32,000 bases of DNA from Mycobacterium tuberculosis H37Rv (GCF_000195955.2 NC_000962.3:1500001-1532000); one strand, 5' to 3'. Counted from the stretch's first letter, positions 3,103 to 30,091 are shown. The notes: a model not told the origin generated them from the letters alone. Made by a program: numbers and translations.

Positions 3103-3384
3103 ATGAACGTCACCGTATCCATTCCGACCATCCTGCGGCCCCACACCGGCGGCCAGAAGAGTGTCTCGGCCAGCGGCGATACCTTGGGTGCCGTCATCAG
3201 CGACCTGGAGGCCAACTATTCGGGCATTTCCGAGCGCCTGATGGACCCGTCTTCCCCAGGTAAGTTGCACCGCTTCGTGAACATCTACGTCAACGACGAG
3301 GACGTGCGGTTCTCCGGCGGCTTGGCCACCGCGATCGCTGACGGTGACTCGGTCACCATCCTCCCCGCCGTGGCCGGTGGGTGA
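3103..3384 (+). CDS. cysO: ThiS/MoaD-like ubiquitin-fold sulfur carrier protein CysO (93 aa, C-terminal GG)
   Basis: The protein ends ...ILPAVAGG directly before the stop. It is small with a beta-grasp-type sequence and sits between the JAMM protease and cysM. Confidence 0.93.
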   Translation: MNVTVSIPTILRPHTGGQKSVSASGDTLGAVISDLEANYSGISERLMDPSSPGKLHRFVNIYVNDEDVRFSGGLATAIADGDSVTILPAVAGG

Positions 3385-9288: not shown

Positions 9289-10846
9289 GCTCGCGGCCGT
9301 GCTCACGCGGTCCATGCAGGCCTCTGCCGGCGACTTGATGGTCCTCGACCGCGAGACCTCGCTGTGGTGTCGGCACCCGTGGCCCGAGGTACACGGGCTG
9401 GCCGAGAGCGTAGCGGCCTGGCTGCTAGACCATGACCGACCCGCCGCGGTGGGTCTGGTCGGCGAACCGACGGTCGAGTTGGTCGCCGCGATCCAGGGTG
9501 CCTGGCTTGCCGGCGCTGCCGTGTCGATCCTGCCCGGGCCGGTACGTGGCGCCAATGACCAGCGATGGGCGGACGCGACGTTGACCCGTTTCCTCGGGAT
9601 TGGGGTGCGCACCGTATTGAGCCAGGGTTCCTACCTTGCCCGCCTGCGATCGGTCGATACGGCCGGCGTAACGATCGGAGATCTCAGCACGGCGGCGCAC
9701 ACCAATCGTTCGGCCACACCGGTGGCGAGTGAAGGGCCCGCGGTCCTTCAAGGTACCGCGGGATCGACGGGCGCGCCCCGTACCGCCATCCTTTCGCCGG
9801 GCGCGGTGCTCAGCAACTTGCGTGGGCTCAATCAGCGCGTGGGCACCGATGCTGCGACCGACGTCGGTTGCTCATGGTTACCGCTGTACCACGACATGGG
9901 GCTCGCTTTCGTGCTCTCTGCTGCGCTGGCCGGTGCGCCGCTCTGGTTGGCCCCGACGACGGCGTTCACGGCGTCGCCGTTCCGTTGGTTGAGTTGGCTC
10001 TCGGACAGTGGTGCCACCATGACCGCGGCACCGAACTTCGCCTACAACCTCATCGGCAAATACGCCAGGCGGGTATCCGAGGTCGACCTGGGTGCCCTGC
10101 GAGTGACGCTCAACGGTGGAGAGCCGGTTGACTGCGATGGGCTGACGCGGTTCGCGGAGGCGATGGCACCGTTCGGATTCGATGCCGGCGCCGTGTTGCC
10201 CTCCTACGGGCTCGCCGAGTCGACGTGCGCGGTGACCGTGCCGGTCCCCGGAATTGGGTTGCTTGCCGACCGTGTCATCGACGGCAGCGGTGCGCATAAG
10301 CACGCGGTCCTGGGTAACCCCATCCCCGGTATGGAGGTACGGATCTCGTGCGGTGATCAGGCGGCAGGCAATGCGAGCCGTGAAATTGGCGAAATCGAGA
10401 TTCGCGGTGCGTCGATGATGGCGGGTTACCTGGGTCAGCAGCCGATCGACCCTGACGATTGGTTTGCCACCGGCGACCTCGGCTATCTTGGCGCTGGCGG
10501 CCTGGTGGTGTGTGGTCGCGCGAAGGAAGTCATCTCCATCGCGGGACGCAACATCTTTCCGACGGAGGTCGAGCTGGTGGCAGCGCAAGTTCGCGGAGTG
10601 CGCGAAGGCGCCGTGGTCGCCTTGGGCACCGGTGATCGCTCGACCCGCCCCGGTCTGGTGGTCGCGGCCGAGTTCCGCGGCCCAGACGAGGCGAACGCCC
10701 GCGCCGAACTGATCCAACGCGTTGCGTCCGAGTGCGGTATCGTCCCGTCCGACGTCGTCTTCGTGTCGCCTGGATCACTGCCCCGGACGTCGTCTGGAAA
10801 ACTGCGCCGCTTGGCAGTCCGGCGCTCCCTGGAGATGGCGGACTGA
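9281..10846 (+). CDS. mbtM: Fatty acyl-AMP ligase / acyl-ACP synthetase (FadD33)
   Basis: The ORF is 521 aa. The adenylate-forming motifs are [10 protein letters not shown] and YGLAES, with GDLG and a C-terminal SGKLRR. It overlaps the mbtL stop by 8 nt. Confidence 0.93.
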
Positions 10847-12006
10847 TGACGGCCGGCTCCGACCTCGACGACTTCCGCGGTTTGCTCGCCAAAGCGTTCG
10901 ACGAGCGGGTGGTGGCATGGACCGCAGAAGCGGAAGCGCAGGAACGTTTTCCGCGCCAGTTGATCGAACACCTGGGTGTCTGCGGCGTATTCGATGCGAA
11001 GTGGGCGACCGACGCCCGTCCCGACGTCGGTAAACTCGTCGAACTCGCTTTCGCGTTGGGCCAGCTGGCCTCTGCCGGCATCGGTGTGGGTGTCAGCTTG
11101 CATGACTCGGCGATCGCGATTTTGCGCCGGTTTGGTAAGTCGGACTACTTGCGGGATATCTGCGATCAGGCGATCCGTGGCGCCGCGGTGCTGTGCATCG
11201 GAGCCTCGGAGGAGTCCGGCGGATCCGACCTGCAGATCGTCGAAACCGAGATACGGTCCCGTGACGGTGGTTTCGAGGTCCGCGGCGTCAAGAAATTCGT
11301 GTCGCTGTCTCCGATCGCCGACCACATCATGGTGGTGGCCCGCAGCGTCGACCACGATCCGACCAGTAGGCACGGCAATGTCGCGGTCGTGGCCGTGCCG
11401 GCCGCACAAGTCAGCGTGCAGACCCCCTACCGCAAGGTCGGTGCGGGACCGCTGGATACCGCCGCGGTCTGCATCGACACCTGGGTACCGGCCGATGCAC
11501 TGGTTGCGCGGGCCGGCACGGGGCTGGCAGCCATCAGTTGGGGACTGGCTCATGAGCGGATGTCGATCGCCGGGCAGATCGCAGCGTCGTGTCAACGGGC
11601 GATCGGAATCACCCTGGCCCGCATGATGAGTCGACGTCAGTTCGGTCAGACGCTGTTCGAACACCAGGCGCTGCGGCTGCGTATGGCGGACCTGCAGGCG
11701 CGTGTCGATCTGCTGCGGTACGCGCTGCACGGCATCGCTGAACAGGGGAGACTGGAACTGCGCACGGCGGCAGCGGTCAAAGTCACCGCCGCCCGGCTCG
11801 GTGAGGAAGTCATCTCCGAATGCATGCACATCTTCGGTGGGGCGGGTTATCTTGTCGACGAAACGACGCTTGGCAAATGGTGGCGGGACATGAAGCTCGC
11901 CCGGGTCGGCGGCGGCACCGACGAGGTGCTGTGGGAATTGGTGGCTGCCGGCATGACGCCCGATCACGACGGTTACGCAGCCGTGGTCGGAGCTTCCAAA
12001 GCGTAG
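10846..12006 (+). CDS. mbtN: Acyl-ACP/acyl-CoA dehydrogenase (FadE14)
   Basis: The ATG at 10846 shares one nucleotide with the mbtM TGA (cTGATGa), giving 386 aa. ACAD blocks are present, including [33 protein letters not shown]. The longer track ORF (10732) lies inside mbtM. Confidence 0.92.
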
Positions 12007-12727: not shown

Positions 12728-12811
12728 GCGGGCGTGATGAAATTGGCAAACATGCCGGTTTTAGGTGCCGGTGCTCGAAAGAGTTTGAGGGTTCGAGTCC
12801 CTCCGCCCGCA
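12728..12811 (+). tRNA. tRNA-Leu, anticodon UAG, class II (long variable arm); CCA not encoded
   Basis: The cloverleaf was folded by hand. The acceptor is GCGGGCG/CGCCCGC (7 bp) followed by U8. The D stem is AUG/CAU with loop AAAUUGGCAAA. The anticodon stem is CCGGU/GCCGG with loop UUUAGGU, giving U33, anticodon UAG and G37. The variable arm is UGCUCGAAAGAGUUU with a GCUC-GAAA-GAGU hairpin. The T arm is GAGGG-UUCGAGU-CCCUC and the discriminator is A. A TACGAT -10-like hexamer lies at 12712-12717. Confidence 0.9.
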
Positions 12812-18762: not shown

Positions 18763-19134
18763 ATGGCCCGCACGCTTGCGTTGCGCGCATCGGCGGGACT
18801 CGTCGCGGGTATGGCAATGGCCGCGATCACGCTCGCACCTGGGGCCCGCGCCGAAACCGGTGAGCAATTCCCCGGGGATGGGGTGTTTCTCGTGGGAACT
18901 GACATTGCGCCAGGCACCTACCGCACGGAGGGGCCGTCGAATCCCCTTATTTTGGTGTTCGGCAGGGTGTCCGAGCTCTCAACCTGCTCATGGTCGACAC
19001 ACAGCGCACCCGAGGTGAGCAATGAGAACATTGTCGACACCAACACCTCTATGGGCCCGATGTCAGTGGTGATCCCGCCGACCGTGGCAGCCTTCCAGAC
19101 GCATAACTGCAAGCTTTGGATGCGGATCTCATAG
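18763..19134 (+). CDS. Small secreted protein of unknown function (Rv1352-like, 123 aa)
   Basis: The ATG at 18763 is preceded by a strong Shine-Dalgarno, AGGGAGGAGA. The signal peptide is MARTLALRASAGLVAGMAMAAITLAPGARA with cleavage before ETGE. The mature part has two Cys. Confidence 0.85.
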   Translation: MARTLALRASAGLVAGMAMAAITLAPGARAETGEQFPGDGVFLVGTDIAPGTYRTEGPSNPLILVFGRVSELSTCSWSTHSAPEVSNENIVDTNTSMGPMSVVIPPTVAAFQTHNCKLWMRIS

Positions 19135-19135
19135 G

Positions 19136-19158
19136 GGCCGGCGTACCCGGTACCGGCC
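19136..19158. terminator. GC-rich hairpin between convergent genes (possible bidirectional terminator, no U-tract)
   Basis: GGCCGGCGTACCCGGTACCGGCC starts 2 nt after the Rv1352-like stop. The arms GGCCG/CGGCC plus GTAC/GTAC give about 9 bp with a bulge and a 3-nt loop. It lacks a T-run, so this is only a weak call. Confidence 0.3.
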
Positions 19159-19199
19159 GCGGGCCTACCACGTGCCGGAACTGGAAGCGCAGTAAGCCC

Positions 19200-19985
19200 T
19201 CAACGCGCCACCGCTTTGGCCCGCGCGCCCGGCGTAGGCGCATCGGCGGTGGCCGTGGGGCGGCGCACTGCGACCTCACCAGCGGCTTTCGAGCTTTGTT
19301 CGATCAACCGGCCAGCATGGTCGAGGATGCATTCGAGACCATATTCGAAATTGGTTTCATCGGGGGCCCCGATCCGATGCCCCCTCCCAGTTGCGTGAGC
19401 AAGCAGCGGAGTCGTCGCGGGATCGATGGCCACGGGGTGTTCAATGGCGGATGGTCCGCTGCCCGCCGACTGGCTCTTGCGGGAGAGCCGATCTAGCACC
19501 ACCGATCCGCGCACGTGGACCGAAACCGCCGAGTAGATGTCGAAAGCGTCTTCGAGCGACAGGCCCGCCGTCACCAGATTGGCGATGGCCTTCTCCATCT
19601 CTTGGGCGCCCAACCGCGCCGTTTTCGGGGACAGCGCCGCTCGAATCAGTATCAGATCGCACAGTACGGGGTTGTCCGCGAACGTCTTCCGCATCGAGCG
19701 GGCATGATTGCGCAACGTTTCGCGCCAGTCGCCGGCTTCGATGTACGGGGTAGCGAACACGTACTTGCTCAAAGCGCGGTCGGTCATCGCGTTGAGCAGA
19801 TCGTCCTTCTTGCGGAAGTACCAGTAGATGCTGGTGACCCCGACGCCAAGGTGTTTGCCGAGCAATGGCATGCTCAAGTTGTCTATCGATACCTGCTGGG
19901 CGAGTTCGAATGCGCCGCTGATGATGTCCTCGGGGTTGATGGATCCGCGCTGCCGTCGTTGACGCTTGCCTGGGGTTGTCTGCAT
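19200..19985 (-). CDS. TetR-family transcriptional regulator (Rv1353c-like, 261 aa)
   Basis: The ATG at 19985 gives MQTTPGKRQRRQRGSINPEDIISGAFELAQQVSIDNLSMPLLGKHLGVGVTSIYWYFRKKDDLL, a TetR N-terminal HTH. The 45-codon extension in the track ORF would overlap the upstream gene. Confidence 0.9.
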   Translation of the reverse strand: MQTTPGKRQRRQRGSINPEDIISGAFELAQQVSIDNLSMPLLGKHLGVGVTSIYWYFRKKDDLLNAMTDRALSKYVFATPYIEAGDWRETLRNHARSMRKTFADNPVLCDLILIRAALSPKTARLGAQEMEKAIANLVTAGLSLEDAFDIYSAVSVHVRGSVVLDRLSRKSQSAGSGPSAIEHPVAIDPATTPLLAHATGRGHRIGAPDETNFEYGLECILDHAGRLIEQSSKAAGEVAVRRPTATADAPTPGARAKAVAR

Positions 19986-20004
19986 TGCCGTTACGGCACC
20001 TCCA

Positions 20005-21876
20005 TCAAGATAACGCCGGGTCAGTTGCAGGTATGCAGGTCGGCGGTAGTCGTCGTGCGGACAACATGTGCCGCATGGCCTCCCCGGGGACAGGCCGGGA
20101 GAACAAGAAGCCTTGCGCACGGTAACAGCGCTGATCCAATAGAATTCTGGCGGCAGCCTCGGTCTCGACGCCTTCGGCTACTACATCGAGTTGGAAGCCT
20201 TCGGCGAGTGTCATGATGCCGCGCACAATGACCAGATCGCTAGTGTTGGTTCCGAGTTGCCGCACGAATGTTTTGTCGATCTTGAGCGTGTCGATCGGTA
20301 GCGTCTGCAACAGTGATATGGCGCTATAGCCGGTGCCGAAATCGTCGATAGCGATGTGAACGCCGACTTCTTTGAGTCGAGCCAGGGTGGCTCTGGCGGT
20401 ATGTAGGTCTTGCACCACAACGTTTTCGGTGATTTCCAAACACACGGACGAGGCGTCCAGACCGTGCTGGCCGATCGTGTCTGCGACGAAGTCAACAAAC
20501 CCGCCCGTCACCAGCTGTCCAGCTGAGACGTTGATACGCAGCAGCGCGTCGTGGCCCAAACCGGCTGACTGCCACTCGGAGAATTCATTGCAGGCCCTCC
20601 GCAGCACCCATCTATCCAATTCGCCTGCAAGGTTGATGGATTCGGCCACAGGGATGAAGCAGCCCGGTGCCAGCAGCCCACGGGTGGGGTGCTGCCACCG
20701 GACCAATGCCTCGGTCCCGACAATGTCGCCGGTCCGTAGGTCGACCTCGGGTAGGTAGACCAGGCGAAGGGCGTCGGATTCGATACCACGTCGAAGGTGT
20801 AGTTCAATATCGTTGCGCAGTTCGCCGCTGACCGACATGTCCGCGGTGAAAATCGCGACGCTATCTCCGCCGGCGTGTTTGGCTGCCAGAGCGGCTTGGT
20901 CGGCTCGGCGCAGGAGGTCCGACGGTGTGTGCTGTCCGGGAGTCCCTGAGGCGACACCGATACTGACGGTGCGGGTGAGCACCTCACCGCCGATAGCGAC
21001 GTGGTCCTTGAGCTGGTCGCGAAGACGTTCGGCGAGCGGTTGAGCGGCATCGGCACTCATTGGAGATGCGGGTATGAGGACGAATTCGTCGCCGCCGAGT
21101 CGGGCGATCAGGCTCTCGCCAACGAGTGCGTCACCGATCCGTTGGGCGAACACATGGATGAACTGGTCACCGGCGGCGTGGCCCAGGTAGTCGTTGATGG
21201 CCTTGAGGCGGTCCAAGTCGAGAAATAGCGCCGCGACCGGGCCAGGTTGTCCGGGGGCCAGTCTTTGGTCCAGGTGCTGCAGCAACGCGCGACGGTTATG
21301 CAGTCCGGTCAGATCGTCATGGTCGGCCAGATAGCGAAGCCGCGCCTCGGCGGCGACGCGAGCCTGCACCTGGGCGAAGAGTGTAGCGATGGTCATGAGG
21401 GCGTTAAGCTCGGCCTCGTGCCATTTCCGATCACCGAACTTGATGAACCCCAGCAGTCCAGTGGTGATCTCGCCAGATACCAGCGGCACGGCGGCAGCCG
21501 ACGTTACCGGAACCCCGCGGGCTTCTTCGATGAGGCGTTGATAGTCCTCGGTGGCCGGCTCGGGCCGGAACACGAGAGGCTCTTTGGCGTGTTCGCATAG
21601 CGCAAACACCGGGTCGGCATCAGCGAAGTAGATCAGCCTGAGCGGATCGGGGTCCGGTATGTTGAGGCGAGGTGGCCATTCGGCCACCAGCCTCGTCGCG
21701 CGCCTGTCGCGATCGTTATGACGCAAAAAGCTGACATCTACGCCCAGCTGTTCCACTAGATAGGCCAAAACGCGCTGACTGACTTCGGCTGACGTGGCAG
21801 CGTCGACTGTCATGAGCTGGTTGGCTACGGTGGTGACGAGCTCCTCAAGCTGCGGCGTCGCGGTGTCGTTGCACAT
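20005..21876 (-). CDS. GAF-GGDEF-EAL bifunctional c-di-GMP synthase/phosphodiesterase (Rv1354c-like)
   Basis: The ORF is 623 aa. An N-terminal GAF-like region is followed by the intact diguanylate cyclase site RLGGDEFVLI. The EAL domain has EALVRWQHP and DDFGTGYS. Confidence 0.95.
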   Translation of the reverse strand: MCNDTATPQLEELVTTVANQLMTVDAATSAEVSQRVLAYLVEQLGVDVSFLRHNDRDRRATRLVAEWPPRLNIPDPDPLRLIYFADADPVFALCEHAKEPLVFRPEPATEDYQRLIEEARGVPVTSAAAVPLVSGEITTGLLGFIKFGDRKWHEAELNALMTIATLFAQVQARVAAEARLRYLADHDDLTGLHNRRALLQHLDQRLAPGQPGPVAALFLDLDRLKAINDYLGHAAGDQFIHVFAQRIGDALVGESLIARLGGDEFVLIPASPMSADAAQPLAERLRDQLKDHVAIGGEVLTRTVSIGVASGTPGQHTPSDLLRRADQAALAAKHAGGDSVAIFTADMSVSGELRNDIELHLRRGIESDALRLVYLPEVDLRTGDIVGTEALVRWQHPTRGLLAPGCFIPVAESINLAGELDRWVLRRACNEFSEWQSAGLGHDALLRINVSAGQLVTGGFVDFVADTIGQHGLDASSVCLEITENVVVQDLHTARATLARLKEVGVHIAIDDFGTGYSAISLLQTLPIDTLKIDKTFVRQLGTNTSDLVIVRGIMTLAEGFQLDVVAEGVETEAAARILLDQRCYRAQGFLFSRPVPGEAMRHMLSARRLPPTCIPATDPALS

Positions 21877-21884
21877 CTCGGATG

Positions 21885-24032
21885 CTATCTGTGCGGCTCT
21901 GGTATGGCGTGCCGTACGCGTCGGCGGCTACACACCGACGGCGGTGGCGCGTGGAACAACCTGAAGATCAACACCTCGTGCCCTTCTTTGCCCGGCTTGA
22001 CCAGTTCCCGAAAGTCGAGTTGCAGGCGGTGCAGCTGTGCGGCGAAATGGGGTGACGCTTGGTCGAGGTCGTGGCGGCCACGTGCATACAGGAAGATCGG
22101 TGACATCGGTTGTACGGCCAGTCCATGTTGTTGGGCCACAATCCACACCGCCTGCATGGCTGATCCGCCACGCGCAAAATCGGTGAGCGTGGCGCCATCA
22201 ACGTAGACGATTGCGAGCGCTGAACTCGCCGACACGCGCTCATTGGTGTTGTCTTCGAGGGCTGTTCCGCAATCCCATTGCGCTAGCCGTGCCACGACGT
22301 CGGAGCGTCGCAGGATATCGAGAACCCGCAATTCGCCGGAATCCAGTTCGAGGCTTCGGACATCGATGCCCGCATCGAGCGAAGGGTCGCCCGGCCACCG
22401 GAGCTCGGACATCATTTCCTCATGTAGCCTCGGGGTGAGATAGCGGATTCGGTCTGCAGCCGCTAAAATTGTTGCAGCCCGGTCGATCTCGTTTCGTGAC
22501 AGCAACAGCTGTAACCGCGCACCCTCAGCCGCGGCGGTGTTCGTTAACAACTCAACGGTCGCGGGGTGGACGTGACCGGGCATACCGTGGTGGCGATTGG
22601 TCGTTCTGAGCAGCATCGGCCGGTAAAGGGCCGCAAGGCTTGGATCATCACCACGGCCAAAATGCATTGTCGCTTGCAGCGGCGAGTCGGGCTGGGATTC
22701 GTCGAACTCTACTGATCCCAGGACCCGGTGTGCAGCGGCAGCGACACGCGCGTTAAACATGGCCGCGCCGACGGCCACTGCGCTACCACGAAACGCGATA
22801 TCCATTGCGCTGGTGTGCTCAGGTGCTAGTCGGATGGTCAGCGAATGCTGTTTGGCCACAACATGCCATGGCTGAACGTTGCCCCCTGAAGGCGCGCGAA
22901 TCGCCGCCTGAGCCACGATTTCGCTGGTTGGCTGCGGCTCGGCTGGCGCTGTTGGCGGCACGGACTCGAGCAACCATCCGTTCCCGCGAGACGGCATGGG
23001 CGGTTGATCGAGGCGATCTAGCGCTGCGGACACATCCACCCGTACCCGGCCAGACTCAAGTGGTTCTCCCAGACCGATTCTGCGTACCGCTTCAGCTACC
23101 GTCGCTGCGCCCACCCAGATATCGCCTGCCAACTGCGGCCATCCCCACAACGTCTGGTCAACTTCGATCATCGAAGCCGCACAACGCGCCGAGAGCTCTT
23201 GGCAATCAAGGATGTTGAGAACGTGGGGGACTTTGTCTTTTGTGGTCAGTCCACACAGCTTGTCGGCGTCGATGTCGCCCAATAGCCCATGAAAGATCGG
23301 TCGCCCAGGTTCGACGTCGTAGCGTTCGACATCGACCAGGCCGCGGTCACTGGTCGCCATCAGTACGGGGACACCACGGGCGCACGCGGCTTGTCGCAGT
23401 ATCACTTTGATATCCAGCGAGTCGCATTCTTCGATAACGACGTCAAGGCCGTCGAGGAACTCGTCGACGGATTCCGGCGAGAGCCCGGATGTAACGAGGT
23501 CCACGGCCAGGTAGGGATCCAGCTCCGCGATCCTGCGCGCCGCAATCATCGCCTTGTTGAGGCCAATGTCGAAGACGCCGACCGGCACGCGATTCAGGTT
23601 CGACAGCTCAATTTTGTCGAAATCGGCCAACCGCAGTGTGCCACAGGCACCTTCGGCGGCAAGGGTGTATGCGATCGCATGGCCGGCGCTGAGTCCGACG
23701 ACGCCGACCCGTAGCGCGTGCAGTGCGCGTTGTTCCTCAGCGGTGATGAGGTGCCTGTTGCGGTCCAAGCGCACGGCACGGAACCCCCGGAGACCCAGAA
23801 TGGCAACAACCATGCGCCGCCAGGGATAATAGGCCCATCGCTTCGCTTCTTCTAGCAGATCTGGATCAGGCTGTGGCAGCAGGCGCCGCACGCCCGCTAG
23901 CTGTTCTGCGAATCGGTCGACGAACTCGATGCTCGGATCTGAGCGTAGTCGATCGAGCACCAGGACATCGTCGTGGTCATCGTCACGAAGGACGAGAATG
24001 CCGGTGCTGCCGCCCTCGTGTGGGATGGTCAC
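21885..24032 (-). CDS. moeY: E1-like (ThiF/MoeB-type) adenylation domain fused to a nitroreductase-fold C-terminal half; annotated historically as MoeY (Rv1355c family)
   Basis: The ORF is 715 aa from a GTG start. The ThiF-type core is [21 protein letters not shown] ... [15 protein letters not shown] ... [10 protein letters not shown]. The C-terminal half carries the nitroreductase blocks [23 protein letters not shown] and [24 protein letters not shown] see no CxxC pairs and no rhodanese domain. Confidence 0.88.
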
Positions 24033-24820
24033 TGTTCGGCTCCAGCGGTCGCTGCGGTGGTTGCGCTCAACGCTTCTACATCGCGCAGAAGCTTGCGCGA
24101 CTCGACAAGCATTCTTGACAGTTGTTTTGGCTCGGCATGGTTAGCCAAGGTTCTGCGGTCCCACCAGATCATCTTGGTCCGGTAGCGCTCGTCCGGGTAT
24201 GCTGCCGCCGGGATTCTCGCTGCTATTACTCCCCCCGAAGAACGCCACCGGTCCAGCGCGTGGGCCGCCGCGGTCCCCATCACAAACTGAACCCCCAACA
24301 GGGACATGCTTAGCGGTAGGGCGCGCGCCAAGGCGGCAGCAATCGCATCACTGCGCTGCGCGTCACTATTAACCCACCCGGACTTCACTTCCACGACCCC
24401 GAATGGCGCCCGGTCATTGATCATCTTGCGCACCGCGGATAATCCGGGATTGCCAGCCCATTCGACTACCGCATGCGAGTCATCGGCTGACCGCAGCGGT
24501 CCGATTACCCGAGCGCCCCCGACTACATCTCCTCCAATATCAATGGCGGCAAAGAACAACTGTGTATCGGAACCGTCACTGATGGCGTCGAGATCTAAGG
24601 TACACTCGACTCCGTGCTTACTATAGGCGCGAAGCGCACCCTGAAGGTATGTATTCCACAACGTGGGATCGAGCGCGGGTTGCGATACCACAAGCCGGCA
24701 TTGCGCATCAGAAACCCACACACTGAGATTTTCCGAAAAATGCAACTTCTGCGGTGCGATAGGACGAAGTTGAGCGGTGGTCATGATTCTCCAATCTGTT
24801 AGGTATCCGGCAATTAACAC
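24029..24820 (-). CDS. Conserved protein of unknown function, translationally coupled to moeY (Rv1356c-like, 263 aa)
   Basis: This is track ORF 24029..24820. Its TGA overlaps the moeY GTG as GTGA. Composition is coding-like. I can assign no motif with confidence; a GNAT/acyltransferase-like fold is only a guess. An alternative start is MTTAQLRP, 12 codons in. Confidence 0.7.
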
Positions 24821-24958
24821 GAGATTTGCTGCCCCTGTATCGAGCAGCGCAGACGTTGGGGCTGCGCCCGGAGAATTGCTGCCGTTGCGCAGAACGGCGC
24901 CGCACGGCAGGGTTCAACGCCCGGCCGCGCTGGTATTTATCGAGTCGCTGCGAGAGCC

Positions 24959-25017
24959 GTGAACAAATTGTCACGAAATCGTGCGCACGCGCGTTCACAA
25001 ATACCACGCGCACGCGC
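24959..25017. repeat. Imperfect direct repeat pair, each unit ACAAAT...CACG...GCGCACGCGC, with GTGAAC/GTTCAC inverted ends
   Basis: GCGCACGCGC occurs at 24983-24992 and again at 25008-25017. ACAAAT occurs at 24963-24968 and 24997-25002. GTGAAC (24959-24964) is the inverse of GTTCAC (24993-24998). The repeat lies 140-200 bp upstream of the Rv1356c-like start on the minus strand. Confidence 0.5.
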
Positions 25018-25292
25018 TCGAAAACTACATGACCAGATAGCCAGATTTTTCCGGACCGGCAAAGCGTTGTTCAGTGTTGGTCACGGCTCTTGATCGTATT
25101 TACCCCGGGTGGCGTAGACCCTATCGATGGTGGACCCCGTTCATCGGGGTAATCGAATGGATCATGCAAAATATTACTTTGACGAGTATTCATTCCGATT
25201 CAACCGGTCCCACCCACCTCTCATGCGTGCGGGGCATACTGTTCTACGGCTTGGTGAAACACGCCGTTGCCATCGATCTACACCCACGCGAC

Positions 25293-26216
25293 CTACTCTC
25301 TGAAAAAGTCGACCGGCAGTGCCTTGGCAAAGTGCCAGCCTTGTGCGGCTTTACAGCCGAAGGCGCGCAACCGGGCGGCTTGGCTGGGGGTTTCGACTAG
25401 CTTTGCAGTGACGGTGATACCGAGCTTGTCGCCAAGGTCGATCATTGCCCGGGTGATCTGTTCGTTGGCCAGCCGAGCTTGAATGTCGCCATCGAGGCAC
25501 TCGATGAACTTTCCCCCGAGTTTGACCACGTCGACGGGGAGGCGGGGAAGGTAGGCGAGGCTGGAGAATCCAATGCCGAAGTCGTCGATGGCGATGCCGA
25601 CGCCGAGAGCGGACAATTCTTGTAGCCTGGTCACCGCCTTCTCGTCTCTGCTAAGGCGCGCGTCCTCGGCCAGTTCGAGCTGCAGGGCATGGGCGGGCAG
25701 GCCGGTTTCGCCGAGCACACCTTCGACCAGCACCAGGAAGCCGGGATCGCAGATGGTGCTGGCGGAGACGTTGACGCTGACAAACGGTTGCGGGTCGGTG
25801 CTGTGGTCACGCCAACTGCGGACGTGGCGGCAGGCCTGCTCGAGCACGAAGGCCGTGAGCGGCACCATCAGTCCGTTGTTCTCGGCACGGTCGATGAACC
25901 GGCCCGGGAGTAGCGTGCCCAACGTCGGGTGTTCCCAGCGCAGCAGGGCCTCGGCGCCGATGATGCGGTTGTCGGCAAGCCGGATGATTGGCTGGTAGAC
26001 GAGGAAGAATTCACCGCGATCCAGTGCCACGCGCATCGAAGTGGACAGATAATGGCGAGTGTTGACCTGGTCGCGGTCGGAGTCCGCCCATTGGTCAGGA
26101 TTGGCTACCATCGCTCGCGCTTGCATCGCGCCCCTAAACATCTCTTCGTAGTCGATCAACTTGGTCGGCCTGAGCGCGCAAGCGAACGCTGTAGCGCGCT
26201 GACAACAACGATCCAT
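25293..26216 (-). CDS. Stand-alone EAL-domain c-di-GMP phosphodiesterase (Rv1357c-like)
   Basis: The ORF is 307 aa. The EAL domain blocks are EALLRWEHP, DDFGIGFS and QGWHFAKALP. A short N-terminus precedes it with no recognisable sensor domain. Confidence 0.93.
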   Translation of the reverse strand: MDRCCQRATAFACALRPTKLIDYEEMFRGAMQARAMVANPDQWADSDRDQVNTRHYLSTSMRVALDRGEFFLVYQPIIRLADNRIIGAEALLRWEHPTLGTLLPGRFIDRAENNGLMVPLTAFVLEQACRHVRSWRDHSTDPQPFVSVNVSASTICDPGFLVLVEGVLGETGLPAHALQLELAEDARLSRDEKAVTRLQELSALGVGIAIDDFGIGFSSLAYLPRLPVDVVKLGGKFIECLDGDIQARLANEQITRAMIDLGDKLGITVTAKLVETPSQAARLRAFGCKAAQGWHFAKALPVDFFRE

Positions 26217-26611
26217 CCAAGGGCTGCATCAGGATTCACAGCCCGGTGGGCACCTCGCCGACCGCGGTGGCAACGCGAAGCACACCACCGAAGTCGTCTT
26301 GACCCGAACCGTCGCAGTAGATTCTGGAGTCCTGGGAGGCAAAGATCGTCAGCGATAATGCGTAAAAGTCCGTCACGTACTACGTAGAAGGTCCGTGAGT
26401 GCAGCCGTTCCGGGCATGCACGAACCGGCGCTTACACGTCGAAGGCGGCTGCGCGGCAATCAGTCTCGGTGGGTAACCCATTGTCGGCGGGCGATCGGTT
26501 ACCTCTCGAATCGACGGCCGCCCGCATCTGAGTTAGCCAGGCCAGCGGTTTCCTACGGGCGCTGGGTGCAAAGATACGACTTCCGGGTGCAATAGTTACG
26601 CGCTATCGCTG

Positions 26612-29600
26612 ATGTTCTTGTCCGCACCGGCCTTCAGAGTTGAGCCAACGCGTAGTCGCCACTCGGCACTACGGTGGGCGCGTCATCGACGCTTCGCTGA
26701 CGGCCCGAGGTGGCAGATGTTGCGCTCGCTGCAGATCGCCGATCAAATCGCTCGTACGGGTCACATGCCAGTGAGGCGTCTTGATCTGATCTGGATCAGC
26801 GCACGAAACGCCGCGAGACGGGAGCTTGATCTGGGCGTGGCTGCGCTGGTGGAGGCTGTGACGTTGCTCACTGCTGACGTCGAGGGCTCGACACGGCTGT
26901 CGCAGACGCGACTCAACGAGCTAGCGGCCGATTACCCAACCTTGGATCAGAACATATCGGAAGCTGTCGCGGCCCATGGCGGGGTGACGCGACCGGTAGA
27001 CCAGGAGGTGGGTAGCGGTCTCGTCGTCGCGTTCCTGCGTGCTGGCGACGCGATCGCGTGCGCTTTGGAACTGCAGCTCTCAACGTTGGCGCCTATGCGG
27101 CCGCGTGTCGGTGTGCACACCGGCGATGTCCGGCTGCGCGGCGACGGCACCATCACCGGCTCCGCGATCAACGAGAGTGCGTGTCTGCGCGACCTCGCAC
27201 ACGAAGGCCAGACTTTGCTTTCAGCCGCCACTGGCGATCTGGTCATCGACCAGCTTCCGGCAAATACCTGGCTGACCGACGTCGGCAAGTACCCCCTGCG
27301 GGGTTTGCATCGCCAAGAACGGGTTATCCAGTTGTGTCATCGAGACCTACGCAATGAGTTTCCGCCGCTGCGGATGTCGGTCGGTAACAGATCCAGCCTT
27401 CCGGCCCAGTTCACCACTTTTGTAGGCCGTGACGCACAGATCAACGAGGTGCAAGAGGTCCTGACGAACTACCGGCTGGTGACGCTGCGCGGCGAGGGCG
27501 GTGTAGGTAAGACGCGTCTGGCGATCCAGATCGCGGCCGCGTCGGAATTTCGCGATGGTCTGTGTTTCGTCGACTTGGCACCGATTGCCGATCCCGGCAT
27601 GGTGTCCACCACCGCGGCCCATGCTCTAGGTCTGATCGATCGGCCGGGCAGCTCAACATTCGACACTCTTAGTCATGCCATCGGCAACTGCCACATGCTA
27701 ATGGTGTTGGACAACTGTGAGCACGTGTTGGATGCGTGCGCCGAGCTGGTCGTTGAGCTGCTGGGTGCCTGCCCGGAGTTAAGCATTTTGGCGACCAGCC
27801 GCGAGTCGATCGGCGTGACCGGCGAGGTCACATGGGTGGTGCCGTCGTTGTCTCCGGCGAACGAAGCAATCCAGTTGTTCACTGAACGTGCGCGCCTAGT
27901 CCAACCCAATTTTGAGATCGTTGCTGACAACTTCGACGCCGTGAGCGAGATCTGCCGGCGGCTAGACGGTATGCCCCTGGCAATCGAGTTGGCCGCGGCA
28001 CGATTGCGGTCGTTGTCGCCAAACGAGATCGCCAACAGTTTGGATGACCGATTCCGCCTGCTGACCGGTGGTGCTCGCAGTACGGTGCAGCGCCAGCAGA
28101 CATTACGGGCATCTATGGATTGGTCGTACGCACTGCTGACTGACACCGAACGGATCCTGTTCCGCCGCCTTGCGGTGTTTGTGGGCGGTTTCGACCTCAC
28201 CGCGGCGAGCGAAGTCGCCGCCGCCGGCGGCGACGACTTCGTCGAGCGGTATTCAGTGCTTGATCAACTGACGCTGCTTGTCGACAAGTCGCTGGTGGTA
28301 GCCGAAGAAAGCCGAGGCAGTACGCGCTATCGGCTGTTGGAAACCGTACGCCAGTATGCGCTAGAAAAACTGAACGAATCCGAAGAAATCGACGGGGTGC
28401 GCGCTAGGCACCGGACCCACTACGCAACCATGGCGGCAGGGCTGAACGTTCCCGCCTCCACCGACTATGAACAACGCCTCCTGCAGGCTGAAGCCGAAAT
28501 CGATAATTTGCGTGCCGCATTCACCTGGAGCCGTGGAAACGGCGATATTGCAGCCGCATTGCAGCTCGCATCCGCATTGCAACCGCTGTGGTCGCAGGGG
28601 CGCATGCGCGAAGGGCTGGCCTGGCTCGAATCCATCCTCGAGCGGGAAGGCGACAATCATCTTGTGCCGGCGGGGGTTTGGGCGCGGGCGCTTGCGGAGA
28701 AGGTAATACTCAAGGCTTGGCCGGCCACGAGCCCGATGGGCGCCCCCGACATCGTCGCGCAGGCTCACCATGCCTTGGCGCTGGCACGCGACGCAGGCGA
28801 CTGCGCAGTGTTGGCTCGAGCGCTCGTCGCATGTGGCTGCGGCAGTGGTTGCGACACGGAAGCCGCTCAACCCTACTTCGCCGAGGCGATCGAGCTGGCG
28901 CGCGCCATTAACGATGAGTGGACATTGAGCCAAATCGATTATTGGCAGGTGGTCGGGATCTTCATATCGGGTCAGCCAATTCCTTTGCGAGCTGCGGCCG
29001 AACAAGCTCGAGAGCTCGCCGACAGCATCGGAAACCGGTTCGTCTCACGTCAATGCCGCCTGTTTGCCTGCCTGGCGCAGATATGGGAAGGCGACGCGAA
29101 CGGAGCATTGGCACTATCTCGCGACGTTACCGCCGAGGCCGAGGTGGCAAACGATGTCGTTACTAAGGTACTCGGTTTGTATGTCGAAGCCATGGCACTG
29201 TCTTACATCGGCGACAGCGCCGCCCGGACCATCGCTGGTGCGGCTCTCGAAGCTGCCACCGAGTTAGGCGGGATTTACCAAGATCTGGGTTACGGAGCGA
29301 TAACTCGCGCGGCGTTGGCCGCGGGCGACGTAGCGGCCATTGAGGCTAGCGAAGCGAGCTGGGATCTTCGCAATCAACACAACGTGGTAACGGCACACCA
29401 CGAGCTGATGGCGCAGGCAGCCCTGGTTCGCGGCGATGTGACCACGGCAAGACGTTTCGCCGACGAAGCTGTGCTTGCGAGCACCGGATGGCATCTGATG
29501 ATGGCGCTGATAGCACGGGCGCGAGTGGCGATTGCGCAGGACGAGCTGGGAAAGGCACGCGATGACGCCCACGCCGCGGTGGCGTGCGGCGTCGGTGTGC

Positions 29601-30091
29601 AGACGTACCTCGCGATGCCGGATGCCCTAGAACTTCTCGCAGGTCTGGCCGGTGAGGCCGGTAACCACGGTCAAGCAGTGCGCCTTTTCGGCGCGGCCGC
29701 GGCCCAGCGGCAGCGTACGGGGGAGGTTCGCCACAAGATTTGGGACGCCGGCTATGAGGCCGCCACGGCGGCGCTTCGTGATGCGATGGGCGACGAAGAT
29801 TTCACTGCCGCCTGGGCTGAGGGTGCCGCGGCCCCCTTGGACGAGGCGATCGCCTACGCACAACGCGGTCGCGGCGAACGCAAACGCCCAAGCAACGGCT
29901 GGGACGCGCTGACCCCGGCCGAGCACAAAATCGTAAAGCTCGTCACCGAAGGACTGGTCACCAAGGACATCGCCGCGAGGCTTTTCGTCTCACCGCGTAC
30001 CGTGCAAACACACCTCACCCACATCTACACCAAGCTCGACGTCACCTCCCGTGTCCAACTTGTACAGGAGGCCGCGCAACACTCGACCTAG
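26612..30091 (+). CDS. Large LuxR-family regulator: class III cyclase-homology domain + P-loop NTPase (STAND/AAA-like) + TPR-like helical repeats + C-terminal LuxR HTH (Rv1358-like)
   Basis: The ORF is 1159 aa. The cyclase block is LLTADVEGSTRL ... RVGVHTGDV. The Walker A is GEGGVGKTRLA and the Walker B-like block is LMVLDNCEH. A long Ala/Leu-rich helical repeat region follows. The C-terminal HTH is LTPAEHKIVKLVTEGLVTKDIAARLFVSPRTVQTHLTHIYTKLDV. The true start may lie downstream of 26612. Confidence 0.92.
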   Translation: MFLSAPAFRVEPTRSRHSALRWARHRRFADGPRWQMLRSLQIADQIARTGHMPVRRLDLIWISARNAARRELDLGVAALVEAVTLLTADVEGSTRLSQTRLNELAADYPTLDQNISEAVAAHGGVTRPVDQEVGSGLVVAFLRAGDAIACALELQLSTLAPMRPRVGVHTGDVRLRGDGTITGSAINESACLRDLAHEGQTLLSAATGDLVIDQLPANTWLTDVGKYPLRGLHRQERVIQLCHRDLRNEFPPLRMSVGNRSSLPAQFTTFVGRDAQINEVQEVLTNYRLVTLRGEGGVGKTRLAIQIAAASEFRDGLCFVDLAPIADPGMVSTTAAHALGLIDRPGSSTFDTLSHAIGNCHMLMVLDNCEHVLDACAELVVELLGACPELSILATSRESIGVTGEVTWVVPSLSPANEAIQLFTERARLVQPNFEIVADNFDAVSEICRRLDGMPLAIELAAARLRSLSPNEIANSLDDRFRLLTGGARSTVQRQQTLRASMDWSYALLTDTERILFRRLAVFVGGFDLTAASEVAAAGGDDFVERYSVLDQLTLLVDKSLVVAEESRGSTRYRLLETVRQYALEKLNESEEIDGVRARHRTHYATMAAGLNVPASTDYEQRLLQAEAEIDNLRAAFTWSRGNGDIAAALQLASALQPLWSQGRMREGLAWLESILEREGDNHLVPAGVWARALAEKVILKAWPATSPMGAPDIVAQAHHALALARDAGDCAVLARALVACGCGSGCDTEAAQPYFAEAIELARAINDEWTLSQIDYWQVVGIFISGQPIPLRAAAEQARELADSIGNRFVSRQCRLFACLAQIWEGDANGALALSRDVTAEAEVANDVVTKVLGLYVEAMALSYIGDSAARTIAGAALEAATELGGIYQDLGYGAITRAALAAGDVAAIEASEASWDLRNQHNVVTAHHELMAQAALVRGDVTTARRFADEAVLASTGWHLMMALIARARVAIAQDELGKARDDAHAAVACGVGVQTYLAMPDALELLAGLAGEAGNHGQAVRLFGAAAAQRQRTGEVRHKIWDAGYEAATAALRDAMGDEDFTAAWAEGAAAPLDEAIAYAQRGRGERKRPSNGWDALTPAEHKIVKLVTEGLVTKDIAARLFVSPRTVQTHLTHIYTKLDVTSRVQLVQEAAQHST

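Follow-up and report, generated by a model that had tools for sequence, protein, structure and literature searches.

Gene Arrangement Links the Tryptazolone Genes trzA and trzS of Mycobacterium tuberculosis to a c-di-GMP Enzyme across Distant Actinobacteria

Introduction

The chromosome of Mycobacterium tuberculosis H37Rv contains, in a stretch of 32,000 nucleotides (nt) that we call the window (NC_000962.3:1500001-1532000; positions are counted from its first letter), four closely packed minus-strand open reading frames (ORFs) at 19200-24820, the so-called moeY operon. They are Rv1356c (trzA), Rv1355c (trzS, formerly moeY), Rv1354c, which encodes an enzyme of cyclic diguanylate (c-di-GMP) turnover, and Rv1353c, which encodes a TetR-family regulator. 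It is very likely that trzA and trzS are the published tryptazolone pathway, that the Rv1354c gene belongs to the same module, and that the TetR gene and Rv1357c, a gene upstream of trzA for an EAL-only phosphodiesterase, are later additions. The identity and the chemistry of the trzA-trzS pathway have already been published; what is new here is the linkage to c-di-GMP across genera, the rearrangements of the genes involved, a fusion of GGDEF and ThiF domains, and the retention of the set in M. leprae.

Together, TrzA and TrzS make N-acyl tryptazolones (Kleetz et al., J Biol Chem 2025, PMC12856293), a function that the same group had predicted in 2023 from the similarity of trzAS to the TyzACB and OxzAB systems (PMC10404671). 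It has been shown experimentally that TrzA N-acylates L-tryptophan from short acyl-coenzyme A (acyl-CoA) donors, the M. tuberculosis protein having been assayed in vitro (PMC12856293). The ThiF-like domain of TrzS converts the N-acyl amino acid to an oxazolone ring in a step that needs ATP, and the flavin mononucleotide (FMN)-dependent oxidase of the same protein performs a C-alpha/C-beta desaturation with O2, which yields the N-acyl tryptazolone; the order of the two steps is obligatory (PMC12856293). The evidence for TrzS comes from the M. tuberculosis protein expressed in Rhodococcus and from purified protein from M. smegmatis (PMC12856293). From the example of other ThiF-family enzymes it is presumed that ATP serves here to adenylate the substrate carboxylate. 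The two genes of the window are the very genes of the TrzAS system described in that work from M. tuberculosis, M. smegmatis and Rhodococcus jostii RHA1; they agree with it in architecture, in the order of the operon and in the conversion of N-acyl-L-tryptophan to N-acyl tryptazolone, with no difference in the biosynthetic genes. The c-di-GMP neighbours are mentioned there in one sentence, for M. tuberculosis only (PMC12856293). An earlier, sequence-only reading of this DNA had taken the molybdopterin name of moeY for an artefact and had proposed a tailoring system tied to c-di-GMP turnover and to a dedicated TetR regulator. It left the substrate unnamed; the literature gives it as N-acyl-L-tryptophan (PMC12856293).

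Results

A c-di-GMP Gene Accompanies trzA

Rv1354c is a GAF-GGDEF-EAL protein (Pfam EAL, E = 1e-67; GGDEF, E = 3e-39; GAF, E = 5e-8) with the motifs GGDEF at residue 261, EALVRW at 389 and DDFGTGYS at 511. Its catalytic motifs are intact in nearly all of 86 orthologues (GGDEF in 83, EAL in 85). Also known as MtbDGC, it compares with the GAF-GGDEF-EAL proteins DcpA/MSDGC-1, and it both makes and degrades c-di-GMP in vitro (PMC2994820); the one functional study of the enzyme that was consulted mentions neither a ligand of the GAF domain nor a link to the neighbouring biosynthetic genes (PMC2994820).

TrzA belongs to a small family of 358 clusters at 50% identity, and relatives turned up in 390 species genomes. 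Gene neighbourhoods were counted over the best 80 trzA-family loci. The cyclase gene is retained in 73 of these 80, whereas the other M. tuberculosis neighbours, which serve as the control, are each present in 1-14. Among the mycobacterial loci, 65 have flanks of 5 kb or more on either side of trzA, and in 64 of these a full-length orthologue of Rv1354c (57-79% identity) is found no more than 10 kb from trzA.

Gene order within these mycobacterial loci is itself variable, and at least three arrangements occur: trzA-trzS-dgc (dgc standing for the cyclase gene) in 31 loci, trzA-dgc with trzS several kilobases off or absent in 17, and trzA facing dgc-trzS in 15. Where trzS and dgc are neighbours the junction is nearly always tight: in 40 of 43 loci it spans no more than about 45 nt. 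Two loci (L016 and L022) have trzA and trzS 5-6 kb apart, and directly behind each of the two genes stands a full-length GAF-GGDEF-EAL gene of its own. In the locus with the closest cyclase orthologue (79% identity; L003), trzS is a C-terminal remnant at 10756-11061 that corresponds to residues 596-713, and the cyclase gene therefore stands almost directly after trzA; the pairing of trzA with the cyclase has here outlasted trzS.

The association extends well beyond the mycobacteria. A GGDEF gene is adjacent in all ten of the non-mycobacterial contexts examined (two Nocardia-type, two Gordonia types, three triple-fusion lineages and three further lineages), one of them a distant lineage whose TrzA is 33% identical. 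One group of Gordonia has gone further: there, a multi-pass membrane region is combined in a single protein of 775 amino acids with a GGDEF domain and with a ThiF domain of the TrzS type, which has 34% identity to TrzS residues 56-334. Its GGEEF motif is intact, it has no oxidase domain, and it recurs in independent assemblies; we found no report of this GGDEF-ThiF protein in the trzAS paper (PMC12856293).

Could the c-di-GMP gene stand beside trzAS through inherited gene order alone, without functional coupling? Most of the loci come from one family, the Mycobacteriaceae, in which gene order is often retained, no experimental link between the two activities exists, and the cluster can be lost in M. 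tuberculosis. However, inherited order would have to account for the scarcity of the other flanking genes next to the cyclase count given above, for a linkage that outlives at least three rearrangements and a large divergence (TrzA down to 29% identity), for the GGDEF domain fused to a TrzS-type ThiF domain in Gordonia, and for the separated trzA and trzS genes of L016 and L022, each with its own copy of the cyclase gene after it. We consider this explanation rather improbable. As judged from their arrangement, trzA, trzS and the Rv1354c gene are one conserved unit, in which the Rv1354c gene is a conserved third component across distant actinobacteria; this is a result about gene organization, and at that level the tie to c-di-GMP turnover drawn by the sequence-only reading is real.

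The unit has also withstood genome decay. M. leprae and M. lepromatosis have kept the EAL gene, trzA, trzS and the cyclase gene, each as an intact ORF; in M. uberis trzS has been lost, reduced to fragments, and a second copy of the cyclase gene has decayed.

Within the trz-linked cyclases the GAF domain is conserved as much as the catalytic domains and more than TrzA, with 42-56% identity to the M. tuberculosis protein against 29-45% for TrzA. The domain bears the signature FLRxND...AEWPxR...PDPDP...DADP. A sequence search of the Protein Data Bank (PDB) with the GAF domain returned no meaningful relative. A Pfam match of this domain to Autoind_bind (E = 0.017) was set aside as too weak for evidence.

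The trzA-trzS Pair

Of the 80 loci, 64 have trzS at a distance of at most 10 kb from trzA, and the pair is thus co-conserved far outside the M. tuberculosis complex, a point on which the sequence-only reading had staked its hypothesis. The trzA-trzS junctions of related loci have a median predicted gap of 8 nt, many of them being overlaps of -4 or -1. In several lineages the acyltransferase, ThiF and nitroreductase parts are joined in a single chain of 940-980 amino acids (P0307, P0322, P0344, P0379 and P0384; loci L090:4824-7760 and L091:8001-10928). The neighbourhoods of three of these fusion genes were looked up (P0307, P0322 and P0384), and a GAF-GGDEF-EAL gene adjoins each. Another protein, P0331, has an HTH_3 domain in front of TrzA-ThiF.

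TrzS Is Not a Molybdopterin Enzyme by Its Profile

Domains were assigned with Pfam and NCBIfam profiles, and ORFs, junctions and invariant positions were computed on the window sequence. TrzS matches the NCBIfam equivalog NF005901, the "Rv1355c family", over residues 4-713 with 1139.3 bits against a cut-off of 476. Its N-terminal half contains a Pfam ThiF domain (residues 90-251, E = 4e-24), which bears out the ThiF/MoeB-type adenylation core recognized earlier, and the six motifs quoted for MoeY are all present, at residues 135, 198, 113, 378, 474 and 628. The C-terminal half has a short Pfam Nitroreductase match (25.4 bits, cut-off 23.5), so the profile searches proposed with the sequence-only reading detect both of its domains, and residues 374-659 match the Acg-family FMN oxidoreductase model NF047509 with E = 2.4e-33, a score below that model's cut-off. 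The AlphaFold2 model of TrzS is moderate (predicted local distance difference test, pLDDT, 70.7; residues 227-365 poorly predicted), and its use was therefore limited to domain assignment. In a Foldseek search its top match is 2YMV, an Acg homologue (E = 4e-10), followed by AclA, PaaA, MoeB, TcdA and ThiF; the nitroreductase fold of Acg type thus stands as it had been proposed.

Twenty-one family members, distant ones included, were scored for invariant residues. In the ThiF core these are G110, G113, S115, G117, H118, D137, D139, N145-R148, K160 and D204, and in the oxidase domain R476, N479, R480, D527, R528 and R530. The glycine loop GLSAGH had been called degenerate; because G110, G113, S115, G117 and H118 are invariant in all 21 members, the alignment marks it as an invariant family signature of an ATP-dependent enzyme and not as a product of decay. 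D204 aligns with the catalytic D127 of Escherichia coli ThiF and, from an offset of 13 residues, is probably the equivalent of D217 in the M. smegmatis enzyme, while R528 is likely the equivalent of M. smegmatis R540. In that enzyme the variants D217A (cyclase) and R540A (oxidase) separate the two steps, and Q651 was also mutated (PMC12856293).

According to the original annotation, MoeY would be an adenylyltransferase of the MoeB/MoeZ type that activates a MoaD-like sulfur carrier for molybdopterin. In favour of this, a ThiF-family domain is present, and the fold matches include a MoeB structure. But the MoeB, MoeZ and ThiF models of NCBIfam score only 38-66 bits on TrzS against cut-offs of 266-647 (MoeB NF004281, 66 vs 266, and TIGR02355, 53 vs 376; MoeZ NF005902, 45 vs 647), compared with 1139 for the "Rv1355c family". 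As the earlier reading had noted, the protein has no CxxC pair among its 8 cysteines and no rhodanese domain in Pfam, and its C-terminal half is an FMN oxidase domain. The only credible MoaD/ThiS-like ORF of the window with a terminal GG is that of cysO at 3103-3384 on the plus strand (Pfam ThiS, E = 4e-17), which is separated from the cluster's TetR end by 15.8 kb and from trzA by 20.6 kb; no such carrier was seen in the related loci whose genes bear Pfam labels. The measured activity, moreover, is oxazolone formation (PMC12856293). The molybdopterin assignment is barely credible, and the name is well described as an artefact of homology transfer.

The other identity to be weighed is that of a pathway for peptides made by ribosomes and then modified post-translationally (RiPPs), in which an E1-like domain for recognition or activation would act together with an FMN dehydrogenase on a ribosomal peptide, on the model of the thiazole/oxazole-modified microcins. 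The ThiF-like proteins PaaA, MccB and AclA are among the fold matches of TrzS, and RiPP pathways contain nitroreductase-fold dehydrogenases (reviewed in PMC12596934). Against this, nothing is conserved upstream of trzA beyond a ribosome-binding box, and the conserved short precursor-like ORFs that the earlier reading suggested looking for there were not found. There is no YcaO or other RiPP-associated Pfam match in the five proteins Rv1353c-Rv1357c, the part of the window that was scanned, the coupled partner of TrzS is an acyl-CoA-dependent N-acyltransferase, and the substrates shown are free L-tryptophan and then N-acyl-tryptophan (PMC12856293). A RiPP system is thus highly improbable: of the tailoring pathway imagined in the sequence-only reading, the small-molecule part has held and the RiPP part has not.

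Among the best sequence and fold matches of TrzS is TcdA/CsdL, the dehydratase of the tRNA base t6A (PDB 4D79, 4YED). Like TrzS it is ThiF-like, is without the zinc cysteines and uses ATP to turn an N-acylated amino-acid moiety into an oxazolone-type ring by cyclodehydration; it differs in its tRNA substrate, its normal GxGxxG loop and the absence of a fused oxidase.

TrzA Is Predicted to Have an Acyltransferase Fold

TrzA has no match in Pfam or NCBIfam, and its fold had been given as unknown. Its AlphaFold2 model (pLDDT 86.8) has as its best match in the PDB the acyl-homoserine-lactone (AHL) synthase BjaI, which is CoA-dependent, followed by GNAT proteins, and the predicted fold is therefore described as that of a GNAT/AHL-synthase-like acyltransferase. 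BjaI and the N-acyl amino acid synthase FeeM (PDB 5W8A, 2G0B) share this GNAT-like fold with TrzA, as well as short branched or straight acyl-CoA donors, BjaI using isovaleryl-CoA; yet identity is about 15%, TM-scores are 0.44-0.52, and the acceptor of TrzA is L-tryptophan and not S-adenosylmethionine.

The ORF had been read as 263 amino acids from a GTG at 24820. Because TrzA homologues are 249-252 amino acids long and a conserved ribosome-binding box lies in front of the internal ATG at 24784, the real start is probably this ATG, which gives 251 amino acids; the GTG would be 12 codons too far upstream.

Organization of the M. tuberculosis Locus

The coordinates are collected in table 1. The packing of the four genes and their junctions, read directly off the sequence, are as the earlier reading had them: the TGA of Rv1356c overlaps the moeY GTG as GTGA, the moeY TAG is separated from the ATG of the GGDEF-EAL gene by 8 nt (catccgag), and the TGA of the latter is separated from the TetR ATG at 19985 by 19 nt that include GGAGG.

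Table 1. Features of the trz Locus in the Window and of Two Related Loci
Feature	Position	Strand	Remarks
trzA (Rv1356c), acyl-CoA:L-tryptophan N-acyltransferase	24029..24784	-	251 aa from probable true start ATG 24784
trzA, longest/annotated ORF	24029-24820	-	GTG 24820, 263 aa
trzS (Rv1355c, "moeY"), ThiF-like ATP-dependent cyclase + FMN-dependent oxidase fusion	21885..24032	-	715 aa
TrzS ThiF-like adenylation core	23280..23765	-	residues 90-251, Pfam PF00899, E = 4e-24
TrzS flavin-dependent oxidase domain	22056..22913	-	residues 374-659, NCBIfam NF047509
trzA stop/trzS start overlap	24029..24032	-	GTGA
Rv1354c, bifunctional GAF-GGDEF-EAL diguanylate cyclase/phosphodiesterase	20005..21876	-	623 aa
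Rv1353c, TetR-family regulator	19200..19985	-	261 aa from ATG; Pfam TetR_N + TetR_C_1
Region upstream of trzA	24785..25292	-	conserved: last 15-20 nt (ACAGATTGGAGAAT) only
Rv1357c, EAL-only c-di-GMP phosphodiesterase, upstream of trzA	25293..26216	-	Pfam EAL, E = 1e-65
Gordonia gene for the 775-aa protein	L082:10754-13081 and L083	- (L082)	convergent with trzA homologue
M. leprae TN four-gene set	L013:7855-15054		M. lepromatosis = L001, M. uberis = L002

Upstream of trzA, the sole stretch conserved among the relatives compared is the ribosome-binding box ACAGATTGGAGAAT (about 20 nt), directly 5' of the ATG at 24784 and kept even in M. leprae; this region holds no conserved small or precursor-like ORF. 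A search of the whole window against Rfam gave a tRNA at 12728-12811 as its sole match, with no riboswitch near the operon, and promoter and terminator scans of 19000-26600 gave signal counts no higher than in shuffled sequence. The stretch 24958-25021 contains GCGCACGCGC twice with a spacing of 25 nt, a 16-nt imperfect inverted repeat and the pair CGTGAACAAAT / CGTTCACAAAT. These repeats and the palindrome were set aside as an operator, not being conserved even in close relatives.

Among M. tuberculosis isolates there are deletion-fusion alleles of the cluster (P0142 and P0164) that combine the MoeY N-terminus with EAL, and TetR_N-ThiF-TetR_C.

The TetR and EAL-Only Genes Are Later Additions

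Of the 80 loci, one contains a relative of Rv1353c, at a distance of 8 kb upstream; among 53 genes that border the cluster at its GGDEF-EAL side, TetR_N occurs in one. The sequence-only reading had Rv1353c as a regulator dedicated to the operon. In its fullest form this proposal would make Rv1353c the repressor of trzA-trzS-Rv1354c, with the product of the pathway as its ligand, and some features speak for it: the gene lies 19 nt downstream on the same strand with a Shine-Dalgarno sequence of its own, and there are short repeats and palindromes upstream of trzA. But Rv1353c is absent from 79 of the 80 related loci, the repeats are not retained by close relatives, and its overexpression in M. 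tuberculosis changes about 94 genes with an enrichment for fatty-acid synthesis, the behaviour of a broad regulator (bioRxiv 10.1101/800334). A dedicated repressor is quite unlikely; Rv1353c is a lineage-specific neighbour, next to the cluster in the M. tuberculosis lineage only, which lies outside the conserved module and should not be treated as part of the trz system. The trzA-trzS pair travels with GGDEF genes and not with TetR genes.

The EAL-only gene is confined to the M. tuberculosis/M. leprae branch: an orthologue of Rv1357c (66-72% identical) lies upstream of trzA in M. leprae, M. lepromatosis, M. uberis and M. attenuatum only. Both it and the TetR gene are later additions in the M. 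tuberculosis lineage.

Divergent from Rv1357c, at 26612-30091 on the plus strand, is a gene for a protein of 1159 amino acids with a C-terminal LuxR-type (GerE) helix-turn-helix. Despite its position near an AHL-synthase-like gene, it is probably unrelated to the module, because a relative is found in only 3 of the 80 loci. In 18 of 53 loci, the gene that borders the cluster at the GGDEF-EAL side has a Pfam FAD_binding_2 match (for example L012:12684-13457, L014:14713-15498 and L026:14713-15492, all on the minus strand). In the fast growers listed it is a convergent ORF of about 260 amino acids with an N-terminus that binds flavin adenine dinucleotide; no counterpart was seen in the M. tuberculosis window.

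Discussion

Two other oxazolone systems invite comparison with TrzAS. OxzAB of Pseudoalteromonas rubra (de Rond et al.; bioRxiv 10.1101/2020.06.11.147165) likewise has an N-acyltransferase gene directly upstream of a gene for a ThiF-nitroreductase fusion and shares the ATP-dependent formation of an oxazolone. It differs in being proteobacterial and in its use of tyrosine or phenylalanine with C7-C12 acyl chains, and its reported genomic contexts include glycosyltransferases, polyketide synthases and nonribosomal peptide synthetases, c-di-GMP genes not being among them. TyzACB of M. tuberculosis itself (Rv2336-Rv2338c, PMC10404671) performs the same three reactions as TrzAS, and the ThiF-type genes of both were once misnamed as molybdopterin genes (moeW and moeY). 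In contrast to TrzS, TyzACB has its ThiF and oxidase activities on separate proteins, its cyclization and desaturation are not bound to one order, tyzA is divergent, and the product is a C12 tyrazolone; it is flanked by cysK1, cysE and mmpL9 and not by c-di-GMP genes.

What might the association with a c-di-GMP enzyme mean? The module may couple the production of a small molecule derived from N-acyl-tryptophan to c-di-GMP signalling, and we think it probable that the oxazolone pathway and c-di-GMP are in some way functionally coupled. The likeliest route would be a response of the conserved GAF domain of the cyclase/phosphodiesterase to acyl-tryptophan or tryptazolone; in the Gordonia variant a membrane sensor part would take the place of GAF. 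Such direct sensing of a ligand by the cyclase/phosphodiesterase is a tentative proposal. The coupling may also run in the reverse direction, with c-di-GMP or the cyclase controlling TrzS, or may amount to simple co-expression.

More speculatively, trzA, trzS and the cyclase gene could form a self-contained signalling module of the mycolic-acid bacteria, in which the TrzAS product is sensed directly and sets the level of c-di-GMP. An N-acyl-tryptophan or oxazolone, resembling an AHL, would then be perceived through the GAF domain or, in Gordonia, through the membrane region or the fused ThiF domain. We hold this possible, though doubtful.

A number of points weigh against the reading given here, that of the pathway as well as that of its coupling. 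Tryptazolones have gone undetected in M. tuberculosis itself, having been seen with heterologous expression, in M. smegmatis and in Rhodococcus (PMC12856293), and the purified TrzS that was assayed is the M. smegmatis orthologue, not the M. tuberculosis protein (PMC12856293). Some strains of lineage 4.1.2.1 have a deletion of 4,752 bp that covers rv1353c-rv1356c (PMC10198500); a cluster deleted in circulating lineage 4 strains is therefore dispensable in that setting. No experiment ties the metabolite to c-di-GMP, and gene linkage gives no direction of coupling. The ten non-mycobacterial contexts were a nonrandom choice. Finally, since a membrane region replaces GAF in the Gordonia cyclase, binding of the product by GAF can be no universal mechanism.

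The wrong molybdopterin label of two M. tuberculosis genes has already been removed by the literature of 2023-2025, and the same literature states the role of the oxazolones as an open question, which the linkage to c-di-GMP makes approachable. A one-line remark thereby becomes a specific hypothesis, relating oxazolones or N-acyl-tryptophan to c-di-GMP, and one open to testing in strains that already exist and on purified proteins. If the trio were indeed a self-contained signalling module, the oxazolones would gain a physiological role, the main c-di-GMP enzyme of the mycobacteria would gain its missing ligand, and the persistence of the intact set in the decayed genome of M. leprae would be explained.

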